Positions 1-53,082 of a stretch of 64,000 nt of DNA are shown one piece after another (within the stretch, counting starts at the first letter, position 1; each line of letters starts with the position of its first letter). Location of the stretch: assembly GCA_965113315.1 (NCBI GenBank), contig OZ220370.1, one strand, 5' to 3'. The translations under genes were made by a program, and so were the position numbers. Source of the stretch: Podarcis vaucheri (lineage: Eukaryota). Below the pieces are notes generated by a model, which did not search any database, had not been told where the DNA came from, and saw only the letters and a program-made list of their open reading frames with translations.

Positions 1-1893
1 TTTCCAACCCTTGTTTGTGATCACCACCGATTCTCTCCCCCGGCATATACACACACAATGTGATCTTTTCTCAATTGGCTGGGGCTGAAGAAGGCAAGAA
101 ACAGGGGGAGTCGCTTCTACTGCTTGAAAACATCCCCTGTTCTTACTTTCTCCACACTGCAGTGCAAACAGAGAGGAAATCTGTGTGCAGATAGGCATGT
201 TATTGGATTTGAAGACACCTGCTCTTCAATAACTCTAGGAGTAGCCCTTTAATGGATGCAGCTTTAATTGTTCCCTGTAGAACTTCCCTCCACATGGTAA
301 GGCTTCATTTTTGCAGGGGTTTTAATGCAAACCCCTTTCTGATTGGGCAGCCCTCCTAAAATGAAAGGTTTCCTCATTTTACCACCCTGTGGTGAATTGT
401 CTGTCCTGGGAAAAAGTGTGCCCTTACTGCTTATCAGTTTCATTGAAACCAAAATGAGAGGGGGAACTCTGCTTTAGCAGCAGTTTCAGTACAAACTGCT
501 GATGGACAAGAGAGCCAAGTCTGCTTTCTGATGGGGTAGGCAAGTCTTGCTGGCTTCATGGTGCTTTGATGTCCCACCAAATCATCTGATGTCAGTGATG
601 AACACGGTTTTGACACCCCCCCCCATACTTGTCAAATTTTGGCCCATGAGGCCAACCTGATAAGGATTTGGCCCACAGAGCCAAAAAGGTTCATAAATTT
701 AGGTTTGCACAATTAAAGTGGATTAAAGCAGCCTGCCACCATAGCGAATCAAATTCACTTTTTAAAGAATAGACTTTTTGCAGTTAAGAAAGTGGCTGGG
801 AAATGCACTGTAAAGTATGGAATGGATGAATGATTAACAGCAAGATGTATCAGCACAAATCAGGTTGAAGGCTCATTGTTATATAACCTCCCCACAAGCA
901 AATCAGAATTAATCCCCAGTGAAGACTACACATTGTCTAACCTCAGTGTAAGCCTAGTGCAAGCAAATCAGGATGAATGGTCAATAAACAAGTTACCCTA
1001 GGAGGAGCTTTATACTTATCCTTTAAATATTTAAAGGATCACTCTAGTGATCCTTTAAATATTTACAAATAAATGTCAGTTGCTTATTTTGAATCAAGAT
1101 AGCCTTTATTTATTTTTTGGCTTCTAATTTCCTCATTCCATCCACACAACTGTTTTAGAAATGTTATGCACAAAGGCTACACAGGTGATTCAAAACCTGC
1201 CAAGTTTGTACAGTTCTCATATGAATTACCTTGCTTGCTGTAAAACGAACTATTGTCAAGTTTGTCCAGATGATAAAACATAAGGAAGATATTTTTATTT
1301 TTCCTGTAATGATATGTGTGGCGGCAGCAGTCACTGAATGGGGACTGGTTCGTTGGAGGAGAGCTTCCTGCCAAGTAGAGCACAGCATTTTTATTGACGA
1401 GTACACACAAAAGGGGGGGGGAGAAAAGAAAGCAACATTTTGGAAAGCGGAAGAAAGAAAAGCAATGCAGTCACCCAAGGGAGTTACTGCAGAAGCAGTA
1501 ATCTGAAATATCCAGGCATCTTGCCAGCTGCTTCAGAAGGCTGAGTTAATCAACACTTTGATGTTTCTTGCCAATCCATGCTGTGGTGTAATACTTCCTT
1601 AGTGCAAAAGTATATGTTAATTTCCCCCCTGTTTATTGCCACCCTAAACCTTTAAACATCTTCTATGGATCCATTTATTTAGATGTATGCAAGAAGTAAA
1701 CTACTGTTATCTTTGAAAGATACATCTTTATTATTCAATTTGCTGCAGTTAATAATTTCCTGGTGGTAGCTTTTATCAGTGCTATGATTTGATATAGCAT
1801 TTACATTCTCTACACTAAGCACAGTGATTTGCGCAGTGCTTCTGAAGCACCCAACCACCAGCTGGTTGACAGGCACTTTGGAAGTGCCATGTA

Positions 1894-2413
1894 CCGTATT
1901 TTTCGCTTTATAAGATGCACATTTTCCCCTCCAAAAATTAAGGGTGAATGTGTGTGCGTCTTACGGAGCGAATGCAGGCTCCTTGGCTTCAGTGATGGCA
2001 ATGCAAGGCCTCCGAAGCGCAGTGGGAGCGCTCCCGCCGCGCTCTGGAGGCTTCGCGTTGCTTTCGCTGAAGCCTGGAGAGGGAGAGGGATCGGTGCGCA
2101 CCGACCCCTCTCGCTCTCCAGGCTTCAAGGATAGCCACCTGAAGCCTCTGGAGCGCAGCGGGAACTCCTGCTGCACTCCGGAGGCTTCGGGTTGCCTTCA
2201 CTGAAGGCGAAGGCAATGTGGGAGAGGGGGAGGGAGAGCTGCGCAGCACCCCTTCAGCTAATTGGGAGGAGAAATGGAATGGGCTCCATTTCTCCTGCCA
2301 CTTTGCTGAAGGGGCGCTGCGCAAAGAGGGGGAGAATTTTTTTTCCTTGTTCTCCCCCTCTAAAACAAGGTGCGTCCTATGGTCGGGTGTGTCCTATAGA
2401 GCGAAAAATACGG
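1894..2413. mobile_element. Non-autonomous Tc1/mariner-pogo-type MITE (CCGTATTTTTCGC TIR family)
   Basis: TIRs ccgtatttttcgctttataag / ctatagagcgaaaaatacgg. TA at 1892-1893 and 2414-2415. Interior made of serial GC-rich hairpins. Confidence 0.85.
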
Positions 2414-3579
2414 TAATTAACAGTGCCTGACCCTTCCCACCAATCCTTGCCTATCCCACACATAACATCATATATGATATATATGGGGGCCAAATAGCCT
2501 GACAGAGAAATGGGGAGGCCTGACAGGTGGGAGTTCTACACCTGATTTCAAAAATAATATTGGTGCAAAGTGGACTCCTCTAGTAAGTGCAGCTTGGTCT
2601 CCAAGCTGTTTCTGCTGACTGCTGAGAGCAATCAATCTTCTGGTTCTGGCACTTGAGCCTAGAGGTGCTATCCCTGCTTTTCTTCACTGATTCAGCCAAG
2701 CACTGCTGGTCCTCCCTTGCTTGTTCCTTGATTCCCAGGCCAGAGTTTAGGTAGAGACATGGTATCTTCCCCTGAATCACTGGGTAGGCCCATGGGACAC
2801 TCCAGCATCAGACTTCTCAAGAATAGAGCCCACATGTTGCAACATTTGGTCAGGTGTGTTAAAACATCATGGCTTGAATATGGCTAGGTACTGAGTAAGA
2901 ACTTCCCAACTCTCAGTCACCACACCACTTCAAACTCTAGATTACATAATCCGTATTTGCTGCATATCAACACCTGAAAAAAATCTTCTGTATTTTTCAG
3001 AATGTATATATGTATATATGACTTCACTGTTGCATCTCAACTGAATGAAGCAAGGCAGTGCCAGCTGTTGAATTATTAATTATTAATCAATTGTCATCTA
3101 AGGTCAGTTTGCTGTCTTCAAAGCACTTGATGCTATTTCTTTTTGAGATAGAGAAGAAAAGAGTTGGTCTATACATGCATCACAATGAGAGGGTAGAATG
3201 AACCGTACAACTTCAGACTGCAGGTGGGGAGCAAAACTTGAGGACACAAAACCAGCACAACAGAGTCTTTGTCAAAAATCTTCTAGTTTTCCATTTGTTA
3301 TGTGGGGGAGAATTCAAAAATAGTATCCCACTTGTAGTCCGAAGCAGTGTAATCTATTCTGCTGCCATTTATCTTTAAATTTTATGTTGTTGCTTTTAGA
3401 ATTGTATGGTTTGATTTATTTGCATTATGATTTTAGATAATATATTGGAAACTGCCCTGTGATTTTACTTGTAACGAATAGCAGTTTACACATTTCGTTA
3501 ATAAACGTTAAATATTCACCTACCTCATTCTGTGTGCCATGTGTAGAGCCAGACAGAGAAACTAAGGAAAACAGCACGT

Positions 3580-3615: not shown

Positions 3616-5472
3616 AAATAAATTGGCATTCACCTGACACTGTTGGGTTGCTGCTCTAGTTACTTTGACTCTTAATATCAACGATTAATTTTCAGTTGCA
3701 CTGCTTAAAAGTTTCAGGCTTCATTTATATTGATTTCTCCTGTACCTGGTAATCCTGGGAAGATGGACCATATGCTGATACATTATAATCCATTAAGTCT
3801 CTCTGAAGTTAATGAAGTTGCCCAAAGTGCGTGTAAGCATGAGAATTGGCCTGCATGTGATTCTTAGATGGCTTATAACTGGGTCACAAATAATTAACTT
3901 TCAGACATTTTAGATTAATATCAATGTAGCATGTACATTAGCCAGGCTTTGGGGTGATTTTGTTGTTGTTGTTTGCTATTTGAATAGATAGCGCTGTGGT
4001 TTTGGTTTTGGCTGATGAAGATGTATAAATCTTGCGTTCTGCTTCTCTAGTTTATTTTTAACAAAAACAAAATCAAAATAAAATAAAGCATGTAATTAAT
4101 TTGAGAAAGATCAGTAATTGTGAATACTCCAAGTATGGTGAGGCGATGACAGTAGCTTTCTGGGTTGTTGGGCTCTCTTAAAAAGTTGGTGAAAGAGGCT
4201 TGCTAATCCTTAGTGGTTTCTTTTGAAATTGAATAGCGGTAGATATTTATTACTCAACATGCAGCAGAGGTCATTAAAAAAGACAACTATATACGTCAGT
4301 TGCTTGACTTTGGCAGATGGTTCTACATACACGGACATTTAGCATATGTTTTCAAAAGCCAAAATGGAAATCATATGACTTGCAAGGCTGTTTTATAAGA
4401 TTGGAGGTCTCTTATAGTTACTGTGAGACCTTTTGTTAAAGGTAGATCTGCCCTGAGAGTTTCTGAGCAAATTCTAATAACAAACAGGATCTGGTTTTTT
4501 ATTAGCAGGGCAATTATATTCTTACATAGCTCCCAGTTGGCTTTTGCAGAGTTTTCAAGCAAACTGTTTTCAAGGACTGCTGAGATACTAGAAAACAAAA
4601 TAAATGTGCAAGCTAGCTTCATGAATCTCAAGCGTTTGACTAACACACACTTGGTAATGTAAAGTCAGCCTGGCTATGATTTCTTGTATACACCAGGCTC
4701 CTTTGTCCATCTGTGCTTAATTGTAAGTGATAGGCAAAGGCAGAAGCTTTTAGCGGTTTAATCGCCAGCCAATTTCTTCCTCTTGAAAATGGATGTGACA
4801 GTGAAATGCCTTCTACCAGGCCAGGTATTTATGGTCTTTTAAAATTAGTTAAATGTTTGTCGTCCATCTTAGTTTATAGTGCTTCCTATGTACTATATGT
4901 ACAGTGTACTTCTATGAACCCTGTCTAGAGTTAGATAATGTACATGCCATGGCTTCTATAAATGGTGAAAGAAAGCAGCAGGGATGGCAAGAAATCCCCT
5001 CTTCCCTTAAGAATCGACCTCATAGATAAACAAAAGTTGTACTCTTCCCTGAACTCTGTTTTGCATGCTTCCACAACGACTAATGACAGCAACACTTAAG
5101 CTGCTTTCAGACAGCACTTTATTCCATTTTCATGTGTTACCTTACCAGATAATTTCCTCATTATTTGATCTTTCACATAATATAAAGGCCAATTCTGGAA
5201 ATCTTGTCATAATTATGGGTCCTGCTACTGAAATCAGGTTGCATGACTGAGTTTTGAACACATTGTTTATCAACTCGAGTACCAAACTCCTAAGCAATTA
5301 CTTGATGCATAACTTCAATATAATTCCTTGGAATTTCAGATTTCAAATAGACTGAAAATTGAACAAACTGCCCTGTTTACCACACCCTGAGCAATAGTAA
5401 ACTGCATTGTAGCTGCTAGGTGGCATACGTTCCCTCTGGATGACAAATGCCATCAAACTGACAGAGACTTGC

Positions 5473-5905
5473 TGTAATGGTTGTAGGGGTTGCTCGTGCG
5501 TAAATCGGCGCCACACCTGGTGGGTTGCCTGAGTGAACCCTTTCTGTCTGGACAGCCACTCGCCCGTGGCTGTCTCAATCGCTGGCAGAATCCATCAGTG
5601 GGCGTTTCTTGAACTTCTTCCAGCAAAGAAGCTCCTTGACGCCTAGTCTCCGCCTAGTCTCCCTGCGCGGAAGCCTTCTGCGCAGGGAGGGCGTGGGCAG
5701 TGGAGGACCCGTGCTCTCCCCGCTGGTCCCCGGCGAGGAGTCATGGAGCCACCTCGCCGATTCCCCCATCTGCCCCCCTTTTCCACTGGTGCTACGCTGA
5801 TTTCCTTCCCCAGAAGATGTGCTGCTTCTCTCCCTCCCGGGACGCTCTCTGGAAACCCTCTGGAGCCCTCCCTCTCCCTCTGGCTCCGATGGCAGTTCCC
5901 TGACA
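5473..5905 (-). repeat. 3' LTR of the Gypsy element
   Basis: Matches 10603-11035 with 7 substitutions and no indels by eye (about 98.4%). Confidence 0.97.
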
Positions 5906-5920
5906 TCCACCTCCTCCCCA
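5906..5920 (-). promoter_or_regulatory. Polypurine tract (plus-strand primer)
   Basis: Minus strand reads tggggaggaggtgga, abutting the TGTCA start of the 3' LTR. Confidence 0.85.
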
Positions 5921-8900
5921 GGACGCCCTCCACCCCGGCGCGATTTTCTGACACAACCTCGTCTCTTTCCTCGGCCGACGATGCGGGGAATCCCTTGAAG
6001 GAGCTGTCACCATCCTCTGAGGATTCAAAACCAGCCTTCCACCCACTCCGATCTCTCCCCGCAGGGTGGACCACCCAGTCTGATTCTTCTCCCTCTGACA
6101 CCTCTCCTCCCTCCTCTTCAGAGGCAGGAAGACCCACAAAGTCCCCTTCGTCGTCTGTGGTTCCAAATTCTTCCTCCCAGAATCTCGCTAGTGGTTTGGG
6201 CTTATCCGGGAACAAACTGTGAAATTCTTCCACCAGATACCCGTCATTGATTGACTCAGCGGGGACCCACGGGTTCTCACTCCCAAGCTACCAAGTACTC
6301 CACCTGGCGACCTCGCCACCTTGAATCAAGTATTTCCGTGGCTTGGTTGCGGTGTTCCCTCTCCTCTACCCGCGGGTGGGTGGTGACTCCTCCCTCCCAC
6401 CCCGGATATTCCCGCCCCTCCCTGTTTGGTGTGAGTAGGGACCTATGGAACAACAGATGTATCTTCATGCTGTCCGGCAACTTGAGTTTGAACGCCACTG
6501 GGTTCACCTGCTGTGTTACCTCAAAAGGCCCCAGCCGCCTCGGCTGCAACTTCTTGCACCCTTCCTTTAGGGGTAACCCTTGTGTTGACAACCACACCCG
6601 GTCTCCTACCCGTATGGCCTCCCCCTCCCGATGGTGCTTGTCTGCCTGCCTCTTGTAAACTTCCTTGGCCCGCTCCAAGTTCATCTTGAGTTGCTGGTGC
6701 AAGGCCTCCATTTCTTCTATAAACTGCTCGGCCACAGGTATACTCCATGCTTCCTCCCCCCTCCCCGGGAGGGCCCTGGGGTGACACCCATAATTGGCCA
6801 TGAACGGGCTCATTCCCATGGACACATGTTCAGCGTTATTGTACGCAAATTCAGCCAAAGCTAGTTTCTCTACCCAATCGTTCTGTCTCTCGCTGACGTA
6901 GCAGCGTAGGTATTGCTTGAGTATACTGTTCGCTCTCTCTGCTTGTCCATTGGTTTCTGGGTGTCTCGCCGTTGAGAAGCTCACCTCCACCTGTAGCAGG
7001 CTCATGAGCTTTTCCAGAACCTGGAAGTAAATTGTTTCCCGCAATCCAAGATTACCCTCGAGGGAGCCCCATGCAGTCTGAAAATGTGATCCACAAACAA
7101 CCTGGCTGTCTCCTCTGCCATCACCGCGTGTGAGCAGGCTATGAAATGTCACATTTTTGTCAGTAGATCGACTACTACCATGACTGCTGTCTTCCCCCTT
7201 GACTTGGGCAAATCTGTCATAAAATCAATAGACACTACCTCCCAGGGCCTTCCCGGTGTAGGTAAGGGTTCCAGTAACCCTGCTGGGGCAGCCCTCTCTC
7301 CCTTTGCCCTCTGGCATCGGTCGCACCCCCGTACATATTCCCGTACGTCTTCCCTCACCTTTGGCCACCAGAACTGCCTGGTGACGAGCAGCATGGTCTT
7401 GTGCTGTCCAAAGTGGCCAGCTGTTGGGTTGTCATGGAGCTGTTTAAATACCTTCCCCCTCAAGGTCTCCCCCGGTACGGACAGTGCCCCCTTATAGTAC
7501 AGTAGCCCTTCCTTTTCCTCAAACCCTCCATGGTCTTCCCTTCTGTCCCAGAGTTCCCTGATTTTTGCTTGAGCGAACACGTCGTCTCTAGTAAGCCCTG
7601 CCAGTTCTCGTTTCCCAACCAACGTTCCCCCACACACCCACCGGTCCTCGGGAAACACGTGTCGGGTTTCCGGTGGTCCCTCTCCCTCCAGGTATTCTGG
7701 TTTCCGGGAGAGAGCATCTGCTCTTACATTTTCCTCTCCCGGCACATATCTGATCTCGAAGGAAAACTTGGCGAACTCCTGGGCCCATTGAACCTGTCTC
7801 TGGTTGAGCACTCGCGCGGTCCGCCAGTATTCCAAGTTCTTGTGGTCAGTACAAACCTGGATCTTGTGCCGCGCCCCTATCAACAGATGTCTCCATTGCT
7901 GAAACGCCGCGTAGATCGTAAGCAGTTCGCAGTCATACACTGTGTAGTTTTGCTCTGACTTGCTCAGCTTCCTTGAGAAAAAGGCACATGGCCTCCAGTC
8001 CTGCTTAGCCCTGGGCTGCAAAAGGACCGCTCCCACAACTTGGTCGGACGCGTCCGTCTCCAGTCTCATGGGCTTCTCCAGATCAACGTGCAGGAGCTGC
8101 TCTTCCGAAGCGAACGCCCTCTTCATCCTTTCAAAGAATTGCTGGGCACTTTCTGTCCACGCGAACTTCTTTTTGCTACTGAGACAATCTGTTATGGGCG
8201 CTGTCAAGTGAGCGAAATTCTTTATGAACTTCCTGTAGAAGTTGCTGAACCCTAAGAACCTCTGCACATCTTTCCGGGTTTGGGGGGCTTTCCATTCCAG
8301 CACTGCCTTCACCTTGCCTGGGTCCATAGCTAGGCCCTTGTCTGACAACTTGTACCCCAGAAACCCGACCTCCCTGGCGTGAAATTGGCATTTTTCCAGC
8401 TTGACCCACAACTGATGCTTCTGCAGTCTCTGTAGCACTTCCCTGACGTCTCTGACGTGTTGCCTCTCATTGTCTGAATAGATTAAGATGTCATCCAAAA
8501 AGGCTACGCAATTCTTGTACAGCAGGGGCCCCAACACGTGGTGCATGAATGCTTGAAAGCAGGTGGAGCCCGATTGTAATCCAAATGGCATGACTAAGTA
8601 CTCGAAGGCCCCCAGGGGGGTGAACATGGTCGCTTTCCATTCGTCCCCCTCCCTTATCCTAATTAAATTGTATGCCCCCCTGAGGTCCAGCTTGGTAAAA
8701 ATCTTCTCCTGCCTCACCCGGGTTAAAATGTCATCAATCCTTGGCATTGGGAAGGTCACGGGTTCTGACACCAGGTTCAAAGCCCTATAATCTACGACCA
8801 ACCTGGGCTGATTGGTCTCCTTTTTGTCCACAAAGAACACTGGACTGCCCCCCACCGCCTTTGATTCCCCCTCTTCAGGTTCTTGTCAATAAACTGCTGC

Positions 8901-9539
8901 AACTCCTGCATCTCCCGGTCGGACATGGTGTACAGCTTACCCACCGGCAACTGAGCCCCTAGGAGTAGGTTGATTTGGCAGCCAAAGGGCCTGTGGGGGG
9001 GTAGTCTATCTGCCTCCCTCTCGCTGAAGACCTCCTTCAGATCAGCATATTGTGGTGGCATCTCCCCTTTTTGTTCCACATCCAGCCCAACCACCCTGAC
9101 CACCGTCATTCTTGGGTTCTTCCCTCCCAGACAGTGTCCTAAGCAGTAAGCTGACCCAAAGGTGACTGACCGCTGATGCCATGACACTACTGGATCATGC
9201 AGTGCCAGCCAGCTCATTCCCAGTATTATTCAGGGTTCTGCCAGTGTGGCCACGTGAAAGGCAATGGTCTCTGTGTGCCTGGAAACCCTCATTCGCATTG
9301 GTGGGGTCTGGTGTGTCACTTCCCCTCCCAGAAGTTCCCTGCCATCGATAGTTGTCACCTGCAAGGGAAAATCCAGAGGCAACAGGTGGAGTTGGTGCTC
9401 CAGAGCGAAGTCTCTGCTGAAGAAATTACACGAGCTGTCCGAATCCAGCAGTCCCTTAACTTTGACAGGGTGCCCATTCGGGAGTTCTAGCACCACTTCG
9501 ATGGCTATAGCTGCCTTGGGAGGTCAGGCTGGGTCACTT

Positions 9540-10552
9540 CTATTGGTTGCTGGCCTGGCTACTGCCCCTGCTGGTTGGCAGCCAGGCGTTGTCGTTTCCC
9601 TGTGCCTGCCCTTCCTCCCCCTTCTCGTCATGACCTGCTGCCCCCACCATCTCTTGCCAGGCTTTTCGTTGAGGGCAGACCTTAGCAAAATGTCCTGGTC
9701 GTTCACAGAGGAAACACTTCTTGGTAGTTTTCCACTCCTTTCCCTCCCTTTTACGACCTTCACCGGAGTTTGAAACCTCGCGCGCGCCATCAATTTCCAT
9801 TGGCTCTGCCGCCTGGGGAGGCTCCCTTGGTATCTCAGGAATGTGGTAGTCATGGAAATGTTCCCCTCTCATTTCCCGCTTCTCCTGAGCCCGCGCTTCT
9901 TGGCGTACGCCTATCGCGAGCACAGCCTTTGTGAGCTCATCCATCGACCGTGGCTGGGGCGCTCGGGACAACTCGCCTTTCACTTCGGGGGAAAGACCCG
10001 CCTCAAACAACATTTGTATCGGTTCAGAGTCCAGATCCCACCCGAGCCGGTGTACTAACATCACAAAACGTGACCAGTAGCTTCTGACGGACTGGCTCCC
10101 CTGCTTGCACCCCATCAGTTCCCGCCGTGTCACGCTTTGCTCCACCTCACTGGAGAACATCGCGTCCATTCCCTGAAGGAATTTCTTAAGGTCCTTCAAG
10201 GCATCATGTTGCATCGCCATTAGGGGCCTGATCCATTCACGCGCCCCATCCTGCAGATGCCCCACAATGTAAGCCACCCTCTCCCCGTCATCAGCAAAGT
10301 CATTTTTTGGGAAGCTCCAAAGCATACTGCACTTCCGTTCGGAAAGCATTGTAGTCTTGGGGCTTTCTACAAAATTTGTGTACCATTCCTTGCGATGGGG
10401 GTGGCTCTGACCTGTGCATGCTGAGCCCGTCTTTCCTCCAGCCGCGCCGTCAGGATAGCTACGTGCGTCTCCAAGTCTCGGTTCCTCTTGACCAGACTCC
10501 GCACCGCAGCTGGTTGCTCCGTCTCTCCAGCTGTTCCTGTTTGGCTCATCAT
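9540..10552 (-). pseudogene. gag: Gypsy gag (coiled coil, capsid, CCHC zinc knuckle), frameshifted
   Basis: ATG at 10552 (MMSQTG...). Two apparent frameshifts near 10390 and 10305. Capsid-like ERVAYIVGHLQDGAREW and QGSQSVRSY, then PMEID and the zinc knuckle CFLCERPGHFAKVC. Confidence 0.9.
9553..9600 (-). promoter_or_regulatory. -1 programmed ribosomal frameshift signal (G GGA AAC plus stem-loop)
   Basis: Slippery heptamer at 9600-9594 in gag frame. Six nt downstream, GCCTGGCT...AGCCAGGC forms a stem. The -1 frame is the protease frame. Confidence 0.8.
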
Positions 10553-10589
10553 GCTGCCTCTCCGGGGCTGCGCACAAGCAATGTCAGGG

Positions 10590-10600
10590 ACTGACGGATT
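10590..10600 (-). promoter_or_regulatory. Self-priming primer-binding site (non-tRNA)
   Basis: Minus-strand AATCCGTCAGT lies 2 nt after the 5' LTR and is the exact complement of ACTGACGGATT inside the LTR (10729-10719). There is no TGG tRNA-type start. Confidence 0.8.
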
Positions 10601-10602
10601 GC

Positions 10603-11035
10603 TGTAATGGTTGTAGGGGTTGCTCGTGCGTAAATCGGCGCCACACCTGGTGGGTTGCCTGAGTGAACCCTTTCTGTCTGGACAGCCACTCGCCCGTGGC
10701 TGTCTCAATCGCTGGCAGAATCCGTCAGTGGGCGTTTCTTGAACTTCTTCCAGCAAAGAAGCTCTTTGACGCCTCGTCTCCGCCTAGTCTCCCTGTGCGG
10801 AAGCCTTCTGCACAGGGAGGGTGTGGGCAGTGGAGGACCCGTGCTCTCCCCGCTGGTCCCCGGCGAGGAGTCATGGAGCCACCTCGCCGATTCCCCCATC
10901 TGCCCCCCTTTTCCACTGGTGCTACGCTGATTTCCTTCCCCAGAAGATGTGCTGCTTCTCTCCCTCCCGGGACGCTCTCTGGAATCCCTCTGGAGCCCTC
11001 CCTCTCCCTCTGGCTCCGATGGCAGTTCCCTGACA
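10603..11035 (-). repeat. 5' LTR of the Gypsy element
   Basis: Direct repeat of 5473-5905, followed by TSD CTTGC. Confidence 0.97.
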
Positions 11036-14019
11036 CTTGCTCTTGAGTAAGCATGCACAGAATCTGCATGCTTTGTGGGCAGTTGATGTTTTAGTGCTAT
11101 GTATCTGTCCTGCTAATATGGCTAATTAAAGGAGAATGCAAGCTTACCAGCAAGATAGGAATTTGAATCCGCTTTAGCGACTGGAAGTGAAGAACCAGGG
11201 GTGGTTGCTATTCTAGGCTGATTCACCTGTCGCCCAGCTAGTGTGGGGCTTTGGGAAGGAGGTTTGAGGCTCTGGCAGGGTCCTAGCACCCTCCTTCCTT
11301 CTTCCCAAAGTTGGGCAACCACTAACTAGGCTTTAGGAAGGTGGAAGGAGGACTCTAGGACTTTGTCAGAGACTTCATGCTTCCTTCCCCAAGCCCAGTG
11401 CCTAGTAGTGCCATGCTTACGAGGCTTTGAGAAGCTCCCTGCAGTTTAGCAGTTGTAATCCAGGATTTTGCATGGCAGAGTAAGAAACCATGATGGCATA
11501 ACATTTTATGTGATGTTCCCATGTTTTCGGGATGGTTGATGAGTATGCCTACAGGTAGACTGCGTAACAGCAACCACAGAATGCTACAAAGCTAGCCATG
11601 GTCATCCTCACTCCTACTTTTCTCCCACTTTGATTGCAATCCTATACATGCTTACCTGGGAATAAAGCCCATTGGACTTTGGTGGCCCTACTTCTGAGCA
11701 GAAATACAAAGGGTTCCACTTGTAAGCACACATTTTTTAAAAGGTTGCAAACTTCCCACTGTTAACTGCTTGCTAAGTTGTTTATCTGTATTTACCCAGT
11801 GTTCTGTTTTACTTGTTCCACACAGAAATCTTTGTGAGGACGCAATGTATGAAGGCTCCTGTAACCACCATATCTTAAAAATAATTCCTAAGTGACTCAT
11901 TATGCTCTGCCTTCCATCAGGTGAGCTATATTCCAGCACATCTAATGGCCTTATTTAAAAAAGACTCACTAAACAGCTGCTGCTGCTCCTTATTGGTCCC
12001 TCTCTTTTCAGTGGCTGCTTTATCCTGCTTTGCTGTTTTACATGCTCTGCTTTTATTTTTTGCTACATGGGCTTTTTAAAATTCCGAATTATTATGTTAT
12101 ATATTATGTTGGCCAGTTATTTTCTTAATTACCTTGAACACATAGTATAAAAAGTGAGATATAAATCTAGTAATGAAATAAACTATCAATATTCCATTAG
12201 GACTTGAGCCATAATGCCAGCTCTGAAATTGAATTTGATCACCCACTTGTAGTGATTCAGACATCCTGCATAGGAAGGTATGCAAATGGTGTGAAAATAA
12301 TCAGCACTGAGAATTCCAAGTCCCCTTTTTTTTCAGTGTTCTGAAGAAAAATTATCTGCAACTCACCCACTCTCCGCAGAGTTCAACAAATATAGAACAC
12401 TCCTTGGGTAATTTGCCTTCCGTTCCTAAGAGAGGAAGCAGAATGGCTCTCATTTCAGACATGCAGATCTAAATATTTATACAGGAGGATTATTTCCCGA
12501 TTAGGCCAGAAAAGAATTTGGCCTAATTTGTTGTATTGCTGCATTTATCAAGCAGTGTGTTCACAGTAGAGCATGACATTTGAGTTTTTCTGTCCTTGCA
12601 GATAAAATGCTGAATGTTTTGTAGAAAACACAACCGCTCCATGAACAAACAGTCCCACCTTTCCAACCTGTAAAGATTAGAGGATCACTGAGAAAAGAGA
12701 GCACTTTCTGAATAGTTACAGAAAACTGAACCAATATTCAACAGCTTCAAGTATCTGCAGAAATGTCTTGTCCAATATCAGCTGTTTAGTTAAGATAAGC
12801 AGGGGAGGGGGCTCTGCAGACAGTCCCCATATGAGCAGGATGCTGGTGGAAGCCATATTTACATCAAGGGGTCTTGTGAGAGATTAGTAACATGAGCTTT
12901 TCATGTTTTATAAAATTCAAGGACTGTGCAGCATAGCATAATCCTACAGCATAAACCTGGAAGAATTTTACTGATGAGCCTCCTCTTAAATCTGAAGGGG
13001 CAAAATTGTTAATGTATCATTCTTTCCCACTTTGCTTTTTCTGCCATTAATTTTCCTGCCATTAATTTCTTCTACTCCTTGCCCCAAACACTGATGAATA
13101 CCCAATGTCAGTTTCCAATCTATAGTATGGAATGTGGCCTCTAACAGCCTTGGTCATGGCCATGCCAAACATTTTACTGGGTTAGTGGCAAAAAGCTGTT
13201 GAAGAAGAAACCCACGTATATGGCATTCATATACAGTCTTACCCAGGAGTAAGTGCCATGAACTTATTTGGACATGTGTATGGTTAAAGTAGTCTTGTAG
13301 TTTTAGATAAAAGGTTTGATAAGCAAAATGCAGGCTGGAGATTACATGGCACAAAAAAACCAATAAACGGTCAAGCATTATCAGCAAGCAGGATTAGGGA
13401 GAAATGGAATTTGTCTTGCATTATGAGAGCACTTTAAAGCAAAAGTAAAACCTTCAGTAACAAAGCAGTGCAGTCTATATATTAACTTGCATTGTCATTC
13501 AGATGGTGAAGATGAGTTGATATTGTGGGGCAGCTGTTTGCTGTATTATAGGGCTTAACCTTAACAATAAAACCTATTCATACTGGAAAAAAGGCTTATC
13601 ATATCACAAAGAGTACCATCTCTAAATCCTGAGGTAACTAGGAAAAAACAAGTATTTCCTCTTTTAAACTGGTGATAAACTTTCGTTTGCAGAGTGCTAG
13701 ATAAATGAAAGAAATTCTCTATTAAAAATAGACATTTGAGTCCAGGCACTCAGACTTTGGTAGGGTAGGGAAACAGGCCTTACAGTTTACATTAATCAAA
13801 AAGGCATTTAGAACAAATAAAACTGCCTTTTTCTGCACATTGCAAAATGCTCACACTTATTTCTGTAGTTGTCTTGTAAAAATGAAGACTTAACATGCAC
13901 AGAGATCTCCTGAGCACTTCTGAAAGGATGTCTGCTATTAGTCTGACAAGACCAGTACACGTGGTTAGCTTCCAACTTATATTAAAACACAATAAAACAT
14001 TAAAATTGAAAAAGCTTCC

Positions 14020-47200: not shown

Positions 47201-48298
47201 GTTACCAGCAGAGCTGAAAGCGAAAGTAAGTTGCCGCTAGCGGTTACAGTTGCCGCCTCCCCTGTAACTTTTGACATTAAGTTTCCTTCTAAAGGATTGA
47301 GAAGGGGAGTAGCGAAACTTTGGGACAGAACAGAAATCTCAGTGAACACTGAATTACTGTAAATTGAATATAGAGGGACCACCTGTTGCTGTATCTGCAA
47401 TTAACTATTTCATAAGGAGGAAGCTCCGGCGCCATATTAACCCGGGGCTAAGAAGAATCTCCGACTCTGACGCTAGACTAAGAGACTTAAAAGACAGTGT
47501 GGCTGAGAAGATAAGAGTACTTAGATGTTTCCTTTGGCCGTCTTTTGAGGGTTCACTCTTCCCCTTTGAATAAGACTATCAAAATTAAGGGGTAGAACTG
47601 GAAGAATAGGGGAAATAACCATTTAAAACTTTCCCTCTAAACTTGGCTCTCTGGCCCCATCTTGTGGCTTGATCTAATTACTACACTCCAATGCTGAAAC
47701 CTCTAATGGAAACCGTATAAAGTTTGTGAACTCAGCTGATTAGAAACTTCCTTAGAGAAACTCCTTCTCCTAACAGCTCACACTTTATGAACTGCTCAGT
47801 ATAAAGTATATTGAGTAGATTTTGGAGCCTATAAATTAGAATCTGGTTTGACTTCTTTTTCTACTTCGACGCCCTCCTCTGGATTATAATTGAACTACAT
47901 CTGAATCTTACCTGACTTTAGAAATTAGACTTTGGCCTGACAAATCAGTGTACTGTTCAACCAATGCCACGGATGGATTAGCCCAATTAGGGGCAAGAAG
48001 AAAACAGAAAGATACAGACAGAGGCGATAAATTAACAATTTTTCTTAACTTCTTTTTTGTTCTTTCTCCCCTCCCCCGGGGGGGGGGGGTAGAAATATTT
48101 AATGGAAAGCTTCCGGGTGTGATAAGTCAAAGAAGCAGAAATTGTATCTGTTATATTGATTTTTCTTTTTCTTCTTTAGGCTGAATCTGTTATACTGTTG
48201 GCTTCTGGTTGGTACTTCATTAATAATTAATTAGAATTGGGTGGCAACGGTATAGTAAGCAAGTGGTGTGAATACCTGATATCTCAATACCTAAGAAA

Positions 48299-49291
48299 AT
48301 GTCACATACACAAAAAAAAGGAGGCGAGGGGGGGACTCCAACAGAAAGGAGACCCTCAAAGCAAGAAACAGAATTTAGAACAGAAATATTGAAGATGTTT
48401 GCAGAAATAAAACAAAGCGAGAAAAATTTAGAGACGAAATTAGAACAGGTCGATAATAAAATCGGGAAGATGGATAAAAAGATTGAGGAGACAGTTAGTG
48501 AACTGAAGGGACAGATCAGAGAGGTTTCAAAGAGAGTGGATGAAGGATTTAAGAAATCAAAGCAGGAAATGAAAGAGTTGAAACGGGAAGAAGAGAAGAT
48601 GAAAAATGAGATTGCAGACTTAATTAAAACACAGGAAGAAATGAAAGACTCTATTGCAATGAATGAACTAAAACAGAGAGAAGTGAATTTAAGATTGAGA
48701 CACATACCGGAAATACAAAACGAAAATATAAAAGAAAGATTGACAAAGGAAATTGCGCAGTGGATGGACTTACCGGAGGAAGAAGTTGCAAAGAGAATAC
48801 AAAATGCATTTAGAATGAAAATCAAAACAAATAAGTTAAAGAAATTCCCGGGTGATTGTTTAATAATCTTTAAAGATAGAGAAATGAGAAATTTGGTACT
48901 CCAAAGGAATAGAGAGAGAAGATTATACATAGACGGGAATTACATAATTCTATTCAAAGACATACCAATAAGACTGTTGAAACGAAGAGAAGCTTACAAA
49001 CCGCTGGTGCAATTACTTAAGAAAAACAAGATCGACTTTAGATGGGAATTCCCTGAAGGAATTTCGTTCTTCTATAAAGGTGTAAAAAGAAGACTAGTAA
49101 GTCCGGAGGAAATAGGAAAATTTACAAGAAGATATAAAGAACTACAACAAGGAGAAGAAGAGGCAAAAGGAGCAGAAGGAGGAGCAAGAAGGAAGGAAGA
49201 CTCTACATCAGAAGGAGAAGAAGAATTGACCGGGAGAGAATCAGAAGAAGAGGAGGAAGAGGAAGAAGGAGAAAGGACAGAAAAACTTTAA
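48299..49291 (+). CDS. ORF1: L1 ORF1p (coiled coil, RRM, CTD, acidic tail), 330 aa
   Basis: Long heptad-rich N-terminal half, then REVNLRLRHIPE, PGDCLIIF, ILFKDIP and FRWEFP motifs. Lies upstream of ORF2. Confidence 0.93.
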   Translation: MSHTQKKGGEGGTPTERRPSKQETEFRTEILKMFAEIKQSEKNLETKLEQVDNKIGKMDKKIEETVSELKGQIREVSKRVDEGFKKSKQEMKELKREEEKMKNEIADLIKTQEEMKDSIAMNELKQREVNLRLRHIPEIQNENIKERLTKEIAQWMDLPEEEVAKRIQNAFRMKIKTNKLKKFPGDCLIIFKDREMRNLVLQRNRERRLYIDGNYIILFKDIPIRLLKRREAYKPLVQLLKKNKIDFRWEFPEGISFFYKGVKRRLVSPEEIGKFTRRYKELQQGEEEAKGAEGGARRKEDSTSEGEEELTGRESEEEEEEEEGERTEKL

Positions 49292-49320
49292 AGTAAACTC
49301 AAATCCAAACAGCTAAAAGA

Positions 49321-52300
49321 ATGACGCTAAAATTATGGAATTGGAACATCAATGGAATGAACGATAAGAAGAAACGAAACGGAATTGAACATATTTTGAA
49401 AAAGAAAAAGTTGGACATCATATGCTTGCAAGAAACGCACGTGGCAAGAAAGCATAGGAAAATTCTGATTAATAAAAGACTAGGGAACGAATTTATATCT
49501 TCGGATAAAGAGAAAAAAAGAGGCGTTGTTCTATATATTCAAAACAAAATCGAATCACACCAATTATTTAAAGATGAAGAAGGGAGAATCATTGCGGTCC
49601 AAATTAATTGGCAAGGGGAAAAACTAATAATTGTTGGGATCTACGCACCAAATGGGAACAAGACAGAATTTTTTAGATCGCTCGAAGAGAAGTTATTTGA
49701 GTATATAGACCAAAAAATTATACTAATGGGAGATATGAATGGTGTGACTTCAATAGAAATGGATAGATTAAGAAAAACGATGAATAAAGAAGGGAAACTA
49801 CCCAAAACTTTCTTTATGATGACGAAGAACTGTAATCTGGTAGATATGTGGAGGCTCAGACACCCATTGGAGAAGCAGTTTACCCATCACTCAGAACCAA
49901 ATCAATCTTTTTCAAGAATAGATCAAATATGGGTCTCGAACGAGTTAACCCCAAGAATACAAAGAATTGAAATACAAGCGAGGGTGATCTCCGACCACAA
50001 TCCAATAGTAATGGAGTTAAAAAGTTTGGAAGAACGATCTTTTAGGTGGAGACTAAACGACAATTTATGGAATGACCAAAAGTTTGTTGAAAAAGTACAA
50101 AGAAACCTAACTGAATTCTTTATGAATAATATGGATAAAGGGACAAAAACGAGTGTGGTGTGGGACGCGAGTAAGGCAGTGATGAGGGGCCTCTGCATCC
50201 AACAGAATGTATGGAAAAGGAACAACAAAGAAAGAGCGACAAAAGAGATTCTGAGACAGATTATGAACAATGAACAAAAGTTGATTAAAAAACCCAACAA
50301 CGTGAAGATAAAACAGGAAATAAAGATTCTCCAAACCCAATTTGCAATGTTAGTTAATAAAGAGGTTGAATGGAACGTGAAAAGATTAAGACAGATAAAC
50401 TTCGAGTTCGCCAATAAATCAGGAAGATGGCTCGCCTGGCAGGTTAAGAAAAAAAAAGAACAAAACACAATTCTTAAAATTGAGTTGAATGGAGAAGAAA
50501 CATCAGAACCGAAGGAAATTAGGAGAGCATTTACGGACTTTTATAAGCAACTATACAGAAATAAAGATAGAAATAACAAAAGAAAAATAGAAAGATACTT
50601 GAAAGAAAAAATGGTAAGGAAGATCCCGGTAGATCAAAAAGAACAGCTGAATGCACCAATATGCAAGGAAGAGGTAGAAGAAGTTATAAAAGAGTTAAAA
50701 AGAGGGAAAGCACCAGGACCGGACGGATTCACTTGCAGCTACTACAAAGAAATGAAAGACATATTAATGGTTCCGTTGATTAAAGTAATGAACAACATCT
50801 TAAAAGAAAAAGATATCCCTGGAACATGGAAAGACGCATTTATTACAATAATACCAAAACAAGATTCGGACCTCACACAAGTCAAGAACTATAGACCCAT
50901 CTCGTTATTAAATATAGACTATAAGATTTTCGCAGGAATTCTAGCCAAGAGATTAAAAAAGATACTAGTAAAGATCATACATAAAGATCAAGAAGGCTTT
51001 CTACCCGGCAGACAAATAAGAAATAATATAAGAAGCATAGTGAACATTATTGAATACCTATCTGATAGATGCGATAAACCAGCAAGTCTAATATTCGTAG
51101 ATGCGGAGAAAGCCTTCGATAATGTGGTTTGGGAATTTATGTTGAAGAACTTGGAGCTTATGGAGGTGGGTCAAGACTTTTTTAACGGCATTGAAGCAAT
51201 ATATACGGACCAGAAGGCAAGATTGATAGTAAACAACTCTATCACAGAAGAAATAAAGATATGTAAAGGTACAAGGCAGGGCTGCCCACTTTCGCCTCTA
51301 CTATTCATTGTAGTTTTGGAAGTCCTTCTAAATGCAATTAGACAAAATAGCCAAATTAAAGGGGTGACACTAGGAGGAAATGAATACAAAATCAAGGCCT
51401 TCGCGGACGACGTGGTTTTGACGGTGGAAGAACCCATAGAAAGTATAAAAGAGATATTAGAGGAGATGGAACAATTCGGAAAAATGGCAGGATTTAGGCT
51501 GAATAAGAAAAAGACTAAAATGATAGTAAAAAATATGGATGGCGATAAAATCAAATTATTACAACAAAGAATGGAAATTGAGGTTGTGAAAAAGATTAAA
51601 TACTTAGGAATATGGCTTTCCGATAGGAACATAGATTTATATCAACTTAACTATATCCCAGTATGGAAAGGCATAAAAAGAGATTTAGAGAGTTGGACCA
51701 GAATGAAATTATCATTCTGGGGAAGAATATCGATGGTAAAAATGATGGTTCTTCCTAAGTTGCTATTCCTATTCCAAACTATACCTATAATTAAAGACAC
51801 AAAAATATTTAAAGAGTGGCAAAAGGCGATTTCAAGATATGTATGGGAAGGGAAGAAGCCCAGGATTAAATTTAAATTACTAACAGACACAAAAGAAAGA
51901 GGTGGCTTCGCCCTACCAGACATGAAACTTTATTATGAGGCAGCGTGTCTGTGCTGGATTAAAGAATGGGTAAAGTTGGAGAATAAGGAATTATTAGATC
52001 TTGAAGGGTTCAACAACAAAGCCGGGTGGCATATGTATTTGTGGAGTGACAAAAAGAAGGCAGATAAAGGATTTACGAATCATATTTTCAGAGGTGCTCT
52101 AATAGAGGTATGGAACAGATACAAAAACATATTGGAACCAAAAATCCCGCACTGGTTATCCCCGTTAGAAATGATGTCTGTAAAAAAAGTTAATATGAGA
52201 GGGAAATGGGGAAACTATGGAGAAATGGTTACCAAGGAAGGAGGGAAGTGGAAATTAAAACCCTATGATCAAGTTAAGGAGTTAACACACGATTGGCTGC

Positions 52301-53082
52301 ATTACTTTCAGATAAACGAAATGTTTAAAAAGGAGTTGAAGGAAAGAAATTACGTAGAAAAAGAGTCAACTTACCAAAAAGAGATAATAGATAACGAACA
52401 TAAAATCCTGTCAAAAATGTATAAAATACTACTGGAGTGGCATATGAAGGATGAGGAAGTGAAAGTGGTGATGGTACAATGGGCAAGGGATCTAGGCTAT
52501 AACATTCAACTAGAGGATTGGGAAAGGTTGTGGAAAGAGAACATTAAATTTACGGCTTGCATTTCATTGAGGGAAAACATGATGAAAATGCTCTACAGAT
52601 GGTACCTGTCACCTGCCAAATTGGCAAAGATCTATAAGGTGGACAACAAGTGCTGGAAATGTAGATATAAAGAAGGGACTTTCTTCCATCAGTGGTGGGA
52701 GTGTAAGAAAGTTAAAAGCTTTTGGGAAGAGATATATAACGAGATGAAAAAGATGTTAAAATATACTTTCGTGAAAAAACCAGAAGCATTTCTATTAGGT
52801 ATCGTAGGGAAGGATGTCAAAAGAAAGGACTGTAGACTTTTCCAGTACGCGGTGACAGCTGCCAGAATTGTGTTAGCCCAGAAGTGGAAGCAGGAAGGAG
52901 TTCCAACGGTGGAAGAGTGGAGAACAAAACTGATAGAATATGCTGAATTGGATAAATTGACAGGGAAAATCAGATATACTAAGGACCAGAAATTTATAAA
53001 GGACTGGGAGAAATTTGTGTGTTATTTGGAAAATAATTATGGGGCAAAAATAACGCTAGTGGGATTTAAAGAGGCTTTGTAA
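49321..53082 (+). CDS. ORF2: L1 ORF2p (APE endonuclease, reverse transcriptase, CCHC domain), 1253 aa
   Basis: EN motifs WNINGMN, LQETH, YAPN, GDMN, SRID and SDH. RT motifs KAPGPDGF, NYRPISLLN, DAEKAFD, GTRQGCPLSP, FADD and KYLG. C-terminal CWKC...HQWWEC. No stops. Confidence 0.98.
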   Translation: MTLKLWNWNINGMNDKKKRNGIEHILKKKKLDIICLQETHVARKHRKILINKRLGNEFISSDKEKKRGVVLYIQNKIESHQLFKDEEGRIIAVQINWQGEKLIIVGIYAPNGNKTEFFRSLEEKLFEYIDQKIILMGDMNGVTSIEMDRLRKTMNKEGKLPKTFFMMTKNCNLVDMWRLRHPLEKQFTHHSEPNQSFSRIDQIWVSNELTPRIQRIEIQARVISDHNPIVMELKSLEERSFRWRLNDNLWNDQKFVEKVQRNLTEFFMNNMDKGTKTSVVWDASKAVMRGLCIQQNVWKRNNKERATKEILRQIMNNEQKLIKKPNNVKIKQEIKILQTQFAMLVNKEVEWNVKRLRQINFEFANKSGRWLAWQVKKKKEQNTILKIELNGEETSEPKEIRRAFTDFYKQLYRNKDRNNKRKIERYLKEKMVRKIPVDQKEQLNAPICKEEVEEVIKELKRGKAPGPDGFTCSYYKEMKDILMVPLIKVMNNILKEKDIPGTWKDAFITIIPKQDSDLTQVKNYRPISLLNIDYKIFAGILAKRLKKILVKIIHKDQEGFLPGRQIRNNIRSIVNIIEYLSDRCDKPASLIFVDAEKAFDNVVWEFMLKNLELMEVGQDFFNGIEAIYTDQKARLIVNNSITEEIKICKGTRQGCPLSPLLFIVVLEVLLNAIRQNSQIKGVTLGGNEYKIKAFADDVVLTVEEPIESIKEILEEMEQFGKMAGFRLNKKKTKMIVKNMDGDKIKLLQQRMEIEVVKKIKYLGIWLSDRNIDLYQLNYIPVWKGIKRDLESWTRMKLSFWGRISMVKMMVLPKLLFLFQTIPIIKDTKIFKEWQKAISRYVWEGKKPRIKFKLLTDTKERGGFALPDMKLYYEAACLCWIKEWVKLENKELLDLEGFNNKAGWHMYLWSDKKKADKGFTNHIFRGALIEVWNRYKNILEPKIPHWLSPLEMMSVKKVNMRGKWGNYGEMVTKEGGKWKLKPYDQVKELTHDWLHYFQINEMFKKELKERNYVEKESTYQKEIIDNEHKILSKMYKILLEWHMKDEEVKVVMVQWARDLGYNIQLEDWERLWKENIKFTACISLRENMMKMLYRWYLSPAKLAKIYKVDNKCWKCRYKEGTFFHQWWECKKVKSFWEEIYNEMKKMLKYTFVKKPEAFLLGIVGKDVKRKDCRLFQYAVTAARIVLAQKWKQEGVPTVEEWRTKLIEYAELDKLTGKIRYTKDQKFIKDWEKFVCYLENNYGAKITLVGFKEAL

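Follow-up and report, generated by a model that had tools for sequence, protein, structure and literature searches.

In a clade of Ty3/Gypsy chromoviruses of the lizard Podarcis vaucheri, the integrase chromodomain is followed by an acidic tail with two copies of a motif that ends in FxGF and that, judged from its sequence, likely binds the host proteins LEDGF/HRP2. It also appears rather probable that the bound motifs steer insertion toward transcribed chromatin and thereby replace the lost aromatic cage of the chromodomain.

Architecture of the element

The window (the whole 64,000-nucleotide stretch that was analysed) holds a Ty3/Gypsy chromovirus, as defined by its LTRs, polypurine tract (PPT), target site duplication (TSD), gag-PR-RT-RH-IN order and integrase-C-terminal chromodomain (Table 1). 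The 5' and 3' LTRs are 97.8% identical over a 449-nt local alignment, and the copy is broken at several places. The chromodomain is assigned from PF00385 matches on relatives and from a sibling model that matches CBX7, CBX4 and HP1 (best E 5.7e-4).

Table 1. Features of the chromovirus copy, in positions of the window
Feature	Position	Strand	Basis or remark
Full-length Ty3/Gypsy element	11035 to 5473	-	LTRs, TSD, PPT, Pfam domains
TSD, 5 bp, upstream copy	11036..11040	-	same five bases outside both LTR ends
5' LTR, TG...CA, 433 nt	10603..11035	-	junction sequences
gag, capsid and CCHC knuckle	9540..10583	-	PF03732 E 7.5e-11, PF19259, PF00098
Protease region, two broken frames	8792..9523	-	PF13650 E 2.7e-4, PF08284 (both under the curated cut-off)
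RT, RNase H and integrase zinc-binding domain	7149..8885	-	PF00078 E 3e-31, PF17917, PF17921
Most of the integrase core, Tf2-type SH3 and first half of the chromodomain	6277..7224	-	PF24626 E 1.9e-17
Chromodomain, broken in the window copy by the 14-nt deletion near 6271	6200..6348	-	
Motif 1: predicted helix to F, 8-residue acidic linker, FVGL	6129..6191	-	
Motif 2: W-xxx-F, 9-residue acidic linker, FKGF	5988..6041	-	
Polypurine tract	5906..5919	-	tail frame of siblings passes through the PPT
3' LTR, 433 nt	5473..5905	-	sibling U3 codes for ~110 more tail residues
Basic C-terminal segment with hydrophobic-Cys-Trp motif, inside the LTR	5575..5650	-	
TSD, 5 bp, downstream copy	5468-5472		

A tRNA-type primer site is absent after the 5' LTR (10579-10602, minus strand); this position is taken by a short hairpin with nine bases complementary to the first nine of the LTR, which presumably recalls the self-priming of the Tf1/sushi group. 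Elsewhere in the window, a LINE that is apparently intact occupies 48272-53079 (plus strand); its first frame has 339 residues and its second, of 1,261 residues, includes the endonuclease and reverse transcriptase. Among the longer window frames outside the element, no host exon was detected in 99 of 135.

Reading frame of the tail

The original prediction was of two peptides on the minus strand (6191-6129 and 6041-5988) in a pol frame that continues past the chromodomain. The translations of both peptides are identical to those quoted, while the continuity of the frame is borne out by the siblings of the element and not by the window copy itself. In the window copy, a 14-nt deletion near 6271 shifts the integrase frame into a stop (6279-6277) inside the chromodomain, and the tail is read in another frame (5643-6287). 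Compared to its siblings, the copy is without the 14 nt near 6271 (5/5 siblings), 1 nt near 5935 (5/5) and 1 nt near 7012 (4/4, the only alignments reaching there).

The siblings were obtained from a genome search in which 40 of 423 candidates were scored and 30 loci fetched, of which 29 are siblings. In 28 of the 29 loci, one stop-free frame covers motif 1 together with the chromodomain core; motif 2 lies in frame in 26 loci, and FxGF closes both motifs in 22. Motif 1 alone ends in FxGF in 25 of the 28 in-frame siblings, and in FVGL in the window copy. None of the siblings has a stop right after the chromodomain, which would have spoken against the original prediction. The frame extends in most siblings for ~137 residues beyond motif 2, across the PPT and into the 3' LTR. 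Continuity from the integrase core to the tail rests on siblings such as L002, which has 537 stop-free residues from the integrase core through the tail; it does not rest on L026, which has a stop within the chromodomain, nor on seven siblings (L005, L008-L013) in which the frame starts only within the chromodomain. In other loci with tails that were read (L054 and L075), the matched region lies within frames of 1,366 and 1,353 stop-free codons.

The seven siblings L005 and L008-L013 are near-identical copies on a 41-Mb contig (C41, 33.4-37.5 Mb) with a common rearrangement just upstream of the chromodomain, accompanied by a short duplication in six of the copies; the group was probably amplified by tandem or segmental duplication. 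At the far end of the tail, the 3' LTRs of L002-L089 and the window (5575-5650, minus strand) code for a basic terminus with a conserved hydrophobic-hydrophobic-Cys-Trp, which in the window copy lies in a different frame from the motifs. This segment is kept across families that are ~50% alike, with the two Cys codons used in 61 and 15 of 76 matches (three of them unrelated), and could possibly serve as an NLS, a lipidation site or a second host-binding motif.

Conservation of the two motifs

Further families of the same genome were collected in searches with two diverged proteins, with 150 of ~5,900 candidates scored in each. Of 120 loci examined, 97 have at least 115 open residues past the chromodomain core and 79 have an acidic in-frame tail, with two strict motifs in 54 of these tails and one in 25. 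The 79 tails reduce to 27 representatives of less than 80% identity (mean 50%, minimum 28%), and 25 of these form the two-motif group.

Across the 25 representatives, the F, F, G and F of motif 1 are present in 25, 24, 25 and 25 sequences, respectively. The W, F, F, G and F of motif 2 are kept in 21, 24, 22, 18 and 22 of the 25, and several of the misses are in copies that are frameshifted at this point. The hydrophobic residue at -4 and the helix F are each found in 24-25 of 25 sequences. The original prediction was also of S/T-x-x-D/E sites of the CK2 type in the linkers, and these occur in 37 of 39 motif linkers of the representatives; the linkers of the two-motif clade have 3-7 acidic residues. 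When expressed as the mean modal fraction, the ten core columns (0.86) exceed the chromodomain (0.80), linkers (0.64), spacer between the motifs (0.46) and downstream tail (0.39), and conservation is far higher in FxGF than in the tail around it. The rank test (p = 1.7e-5) is descriptive, as the sequences are related and the loci were retrieved with motif-containing queries, which can inflate conservation. In a young family (L054, L075 and L076), L replaces the first F of motif 1.

The two-motif pattern is beyond chance. Both motifs arose in 0 to 3 per 10,000 shuffles of the tail (four two-motif tails, 20,000 shuffles each). When the window is read in all six frames (127,996 codons), three matches to a looser pattern (hydrophobic-xxx-F-x8..10-F-x-G-[FL]) are seen, namely the two motifs and one sequence without any acidic or S/T residue in the linker.

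The constraint on the motifs points to the protein. The three F codons of motif 1 are TTT or TTC in ratios of 14/11, 10/14 and 11/14 among the 25 representatives, and all four codons are in use for its Gly. In the 63 of 79 tails that were parsed, 16 to 35 residues separate the two motifs, while the distance from F to FxGF is constant (8 residues for motif 1, 9 for motif 2). Synonymous variation and a variable spacer around near-invariant F and G residues thus argue for selection at the protein level. A deep sister group has only a single motif with a wholly different 8-residue linker (25/25 readable of 29 loci), which is rich in S/T and devoid of D/E.

Likeness to ligands of LEDGF/HRP2

The motif layout of hydrophobic-x-x-x-F, an acidic linker of 8-9 residues and FxGF is that of JPO2 and POGZ. 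The comparison was made with PDB fusion constructs that were retrieved with the host LEDGF exon. In the solved LEDGF complexes, JPO2 motif 1 and POGZ are spaced as F-x8-FxGF; JPO2 motif 2 is F-x10-FxGF and KMT2A is F-x14-FxGF. The JPO2, POGZ and KMT2A ligands have a hydrophobic-x-x-hydrophobic stretch ahead of the F, and most element families follow this pattern with V before the helix F. By contrast, the family of the window copy has E or G before the helix F, unlike the aliphatic residue of the known ligands.

The element motifs also resemble a motif of the host itself. An exon of a CDCA7-like gene (the name is inferred from the query) encodes LADIF-NTPSDDED-FLGF, which has F-x8 spacing and a linker near-identical to that of the elements, such as family P0005 with FEQVF-GPTDDEED-FKGF. 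When the genome was searched with the JPO2 motif 1 peptide, the one candidate was the host exon (E 0.017) and the element tails were unmatched; thus, this search shows no kinship of the tails at the sequence level beyond the pattern. Host exons of the LEDGF family are at two loci, read from their translations as PSIP1 and HDGFL2, and lizard and human IBDs are nearly identical.

In AlphaFold2 models of 19 natural frames, the chromodomain has a pLDDT of about 90, a helix (61-69) ends on the F of motif 1 and a short helix (111-114) precedes the F of motif 2. The motif helices are of low confidence (block pLDDT 63 and 51), the rest of the tail is disordered (pLDDT mostly <55) and no fold is seen past residue 70. 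A complex prediction of the lizard LEDGF IBD with a two-motif tail, run without alignments and with no control folded, gave a score of 0.02 (mark 0.34) and weighs neither for nor against binding. In the ESM Atlas, all matches were chromodomain clusters, none above 0.87. Three RNA runs from a related organism were uninformative, with 87-108 reads each, mostly from the LTR and with almost none over the motifs.

Loss of the chromodomain cage

The classical group I chromodomain cage is formed by Y24, W45 and Y48 (PMC3350952). In a census of 163 proteins, 141 span the SH3-chromodomain region, of which 8 are of the motif clade and 133 are other chromoviruses. The motif clade is without this cage: the first and third positions are non-aromatic in all 8 rows, and the W is kept in 6/8. 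By contrast, the cage is complete in 124 of the 133 others, and none of the 133 has the motif. Frames from the genome itself agree, with an aromatic residue at the third position in 0/97 and the W also gone in 24. In a second set, the SH3 anchor is present in 67 of 114 proteins and the motif only in four Podarcis members; the named relatives of the element are from Podarcis muralis and P. lilfordi. The motif clade is well separated in a quick tree (SH-aLRT 100, stem 0.87), and motif gain and cage loss map to the same branch. As this amounts to a single event, a swap is suggested but not proven.

The chromodomain of the motif clade stays conserved (0.80), folds well in models and matches chromodomains of CBX and HP1. 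Plant group II chromodomains are without the same two residues and yet their elements are mostly heterochromatic (PMC3350952); thus, cage loss is no proof that chromodomain function is lost. The original prediction was of a second targeting route in addition to the chromodomain. Since the clade lacks two of the three cage residues, it is more likely that the motif stands in for methyl-lysine reading than that it supplements it.

A cage-intact family from this genome likewise carries an acidic tail that runs into the LTR, but this tail is without FxGF. Other short motifs are seen in related elements. In 39 of the 133 cage-intact chromoviruses (among P0024-P0163), an RGRP stretch, which is taken here to be AT-hook-like, directly follows the chromodomain in the slot of motif 1. 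In a young cage-intact family (L125, L128, L130 and L133), the acidic tail that enters the LTR has a basic RRSARL end, which presumably resembles the anchors that bind the nucleosome acidic patch. One control locus seemed to match the motif; the match instead belongs to an element of the motif clade, a fragment of which lies next to the control copy. At this locus (L126:342-1019 and 1108-3087), a cage-intact copy adjoins a motif-clade tail fragment, into which it was apparently inserted.

Chromosomal distribution

Of the 40 full-length best matches of the window's family, 27 are on C41, as are about half of the matches of the control family and about half or more for every Gypsy family searched. 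The excess on C41 is common to the control family and is, therefore, probably a matter of retention; C41 is likely a W-like chromosome or other non-recombining region. Outside C41, copies within 5 Mb of a contig end number 30 of 60 for the two-motif clade and 30 of 70 for the cage-intact, motif-free family (p = 0.48), with an expected share of 12%. Because the control family is equally concentrated, enrichment at contig ends as a motif-specific trait of the two-motif clade was rejected. The one-motif group, with 56 of 72 copies within 5 Mb of contig ends, stays higher (p = 3e-5); several identically scoring copies, found at different chromosome ends, may be the product of duplication. By the proxy of distance to contig ends, surviving copies give no support to the predicted gene-body pattern.

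Proposed mechanism and alternative readings

In the proposed mechanism, the tail would stay on integrase after polyprotein processing, and each motif, by analogy to the cellular ligands, would bind to the LEDGF/HRP2 IBD at its two pockets and its basic patch. Phosphorylation by CK2 may tune or strengthen this binding, and two motifs on a multimeric intasome may give avidity. The PWWP domain of LEDGF/HRP2 would then hold the intasome at H3K36me2/3 nucleosomes, as in the cellular and lentiviral cases, such that insertion may shift to H3K36-methylated, transcribed chromatin.

A broader form of this idea is plausible but falls a little short of being probable. The clade may have swapped its targeting, by losing the cage and gaining tandem, phospho-switchable LEDGF/HRP2 motifs through CDCA7-like mimicry or capture, with the position behind the chromodomain acting as an exchangeable cassette for short motifs. 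If so, the slot would hold a chromatin-binding motif that is presumably AT-hook-like in other chromoviruses and FxGF in the lizard clade, and the host tether used by HIV would have been reached through a cellular interface.

Among the alternatives, binding of LEDGF/HRP2 for a purpose other than targeting is unlikely but survives best. The motifs may keep integrase in the nucleus or stabilise it, recruit repair factors, or capture chromatin and so raise integration efficiency, while the chromodomain still picks the site in a manner independent of the cage. Motif conservation and the ligand match would serve such roles equally, the distribution of copies is no different from that of the control family, the chromodomain is conserved and folds well, and in HIV, LEDGF has a stabilising effect on the integration complex as well (PMC8149907). 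Targeting is favoured instead by the coincidence of cage loss and motif gain on one branch and by the known integrase-tail motifs of MLV, Ty1 and Ty5, which set target choice.

The partner could be another TND protein (IWS1, TFIIS, ELOA, PNUTS or MED26), with the motifs acting as TIMs that couple integration to the elongation machinery, though this is improbable. According to the accessible text of PMC9987994, every TIM has a helix and, after it, an acidic linker of 8-16 residues that is phosphorylated by CK2, whereas FxGF is optional. All TND ligands have the first two parts in common, and JPO2 has two such motifs (PMC9987994). However, FxGF is the most conserved part of the element motifs and is uniquely important for LEDGF and HRP2: all of their known partners have it, while many other TIMs do not (PMC9987994). 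The original prediction had named both LEDGF/HDGFL2 and elongation factors as candidates, and this feature points to LEDGF/HRP2 over the elongation-factor TNDs.

About equally improbable is an unrelated partner or packing within the protein itself, in which the tail would carry a W-acidic trafficking motif or act as a latch on the basic SH3/chromodomain surface. Several stretches of the tail are indeed W-acidic, and a search of the tail against PDB sequences found nothing meaningful, with only weak, unrelated matches (E 0.7-1.5). By contrast, just 9 of 25 representatives have kept the W of motif 1, whereas FxGF hardly varies, and the fixed spacing of 8-9 residues between F and FxGF occurs twice. 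Gamma-adaptin-ear motifs have G at the second position, whereas the invariant G is third in the element motif. Conservation at the nucleic acid level, as by a cis element (the region is just upstream of the PPT), or chance in an acidic tail is very improbable and already largely refuted by the synonymous codons, frame-keeping spacer changes and shuffle null.

Comparison to known systems

Binding of LEDGF/HRP2 by the FxGF motifs, the preferred reading, would relate the lizard clade to several systems. Like the cellular IBD motifs of JPO2/CDCA7L, POGZ, KMT2A, IWS1 and fly JIL-1, the motifs have a helix ending in F, an acidic S/T-rich linker of 8-9 residues and FxGF, and the tandem arrangement is that of JPO2. 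They differ from these in that they are on the integrase of a multi-copy retrotransposon, with predicted binding, and in that the linker of one subgroup is of uncharged S/T. POGZ, a domesticated pogo/Passer transposase, is likewise a DDE-family protein with a C-terminal FxGF, which in its case is bound to LEDGF. However, POGZ is encoded by one host gene and showed no transposition activity in an assay (PMC9976928), whereas the lizard elements are multi-copy and some have long open pol frames.

Plant group II chromodomains similarly lack the first cage residue and, in most cases, the third (PMC3350952), and the coding region of CRM group A enters the 3' LTR (PMC3059260). Unlike group II, which as of 2012 had been identified in plants alone (PMC3350952), the lizard clade is of vertebrates; no FxGF motif is described for plant group II or CRM group A in the accessible text of these sources. 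MLV IN-BET ET, Ty5-Sir4 and Ty1-AC40 share with the lizard clade a short motif on a flexible integrase C-terminus and a host chromatin partner, which is predicted in the lizard case. Their motifs and partners are different, and the lizard clade has two copies of its motif, after a chromodomain.

The predicted host factor and chromatin target are the same as those of lentiviral integrase-LEDGF/p75. However, HIV-1 integrase binds the IBD by a cleft between two folded protomers and not by a linear FxGF (PMC8149907), and the use of LEDGF by integrases has so far been treated as a lentiviral trait of a folded integrase surface. No report of an FxGF/IBD-binding motif in a retrotransposon integrase was found in the literature searched, which is mostly non-subscription, and earlier motif scans were possibly missed. 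Each principle is separately known; the combination of a linear motif of the LEDGF type with the tail of a retrotransposon integrase did not appear in that literature. If the preferred reading is true, the LEDGF strategy would have had an independent origin that uses the host's own linear motif. Cage-intact and motif-bearing chromoviruses of one genome would then offer a natural comparison that could directly test the role of the chromodomain in vertebrate target choice, and dozens of diverged natural variants show which motif positions tolerate change.
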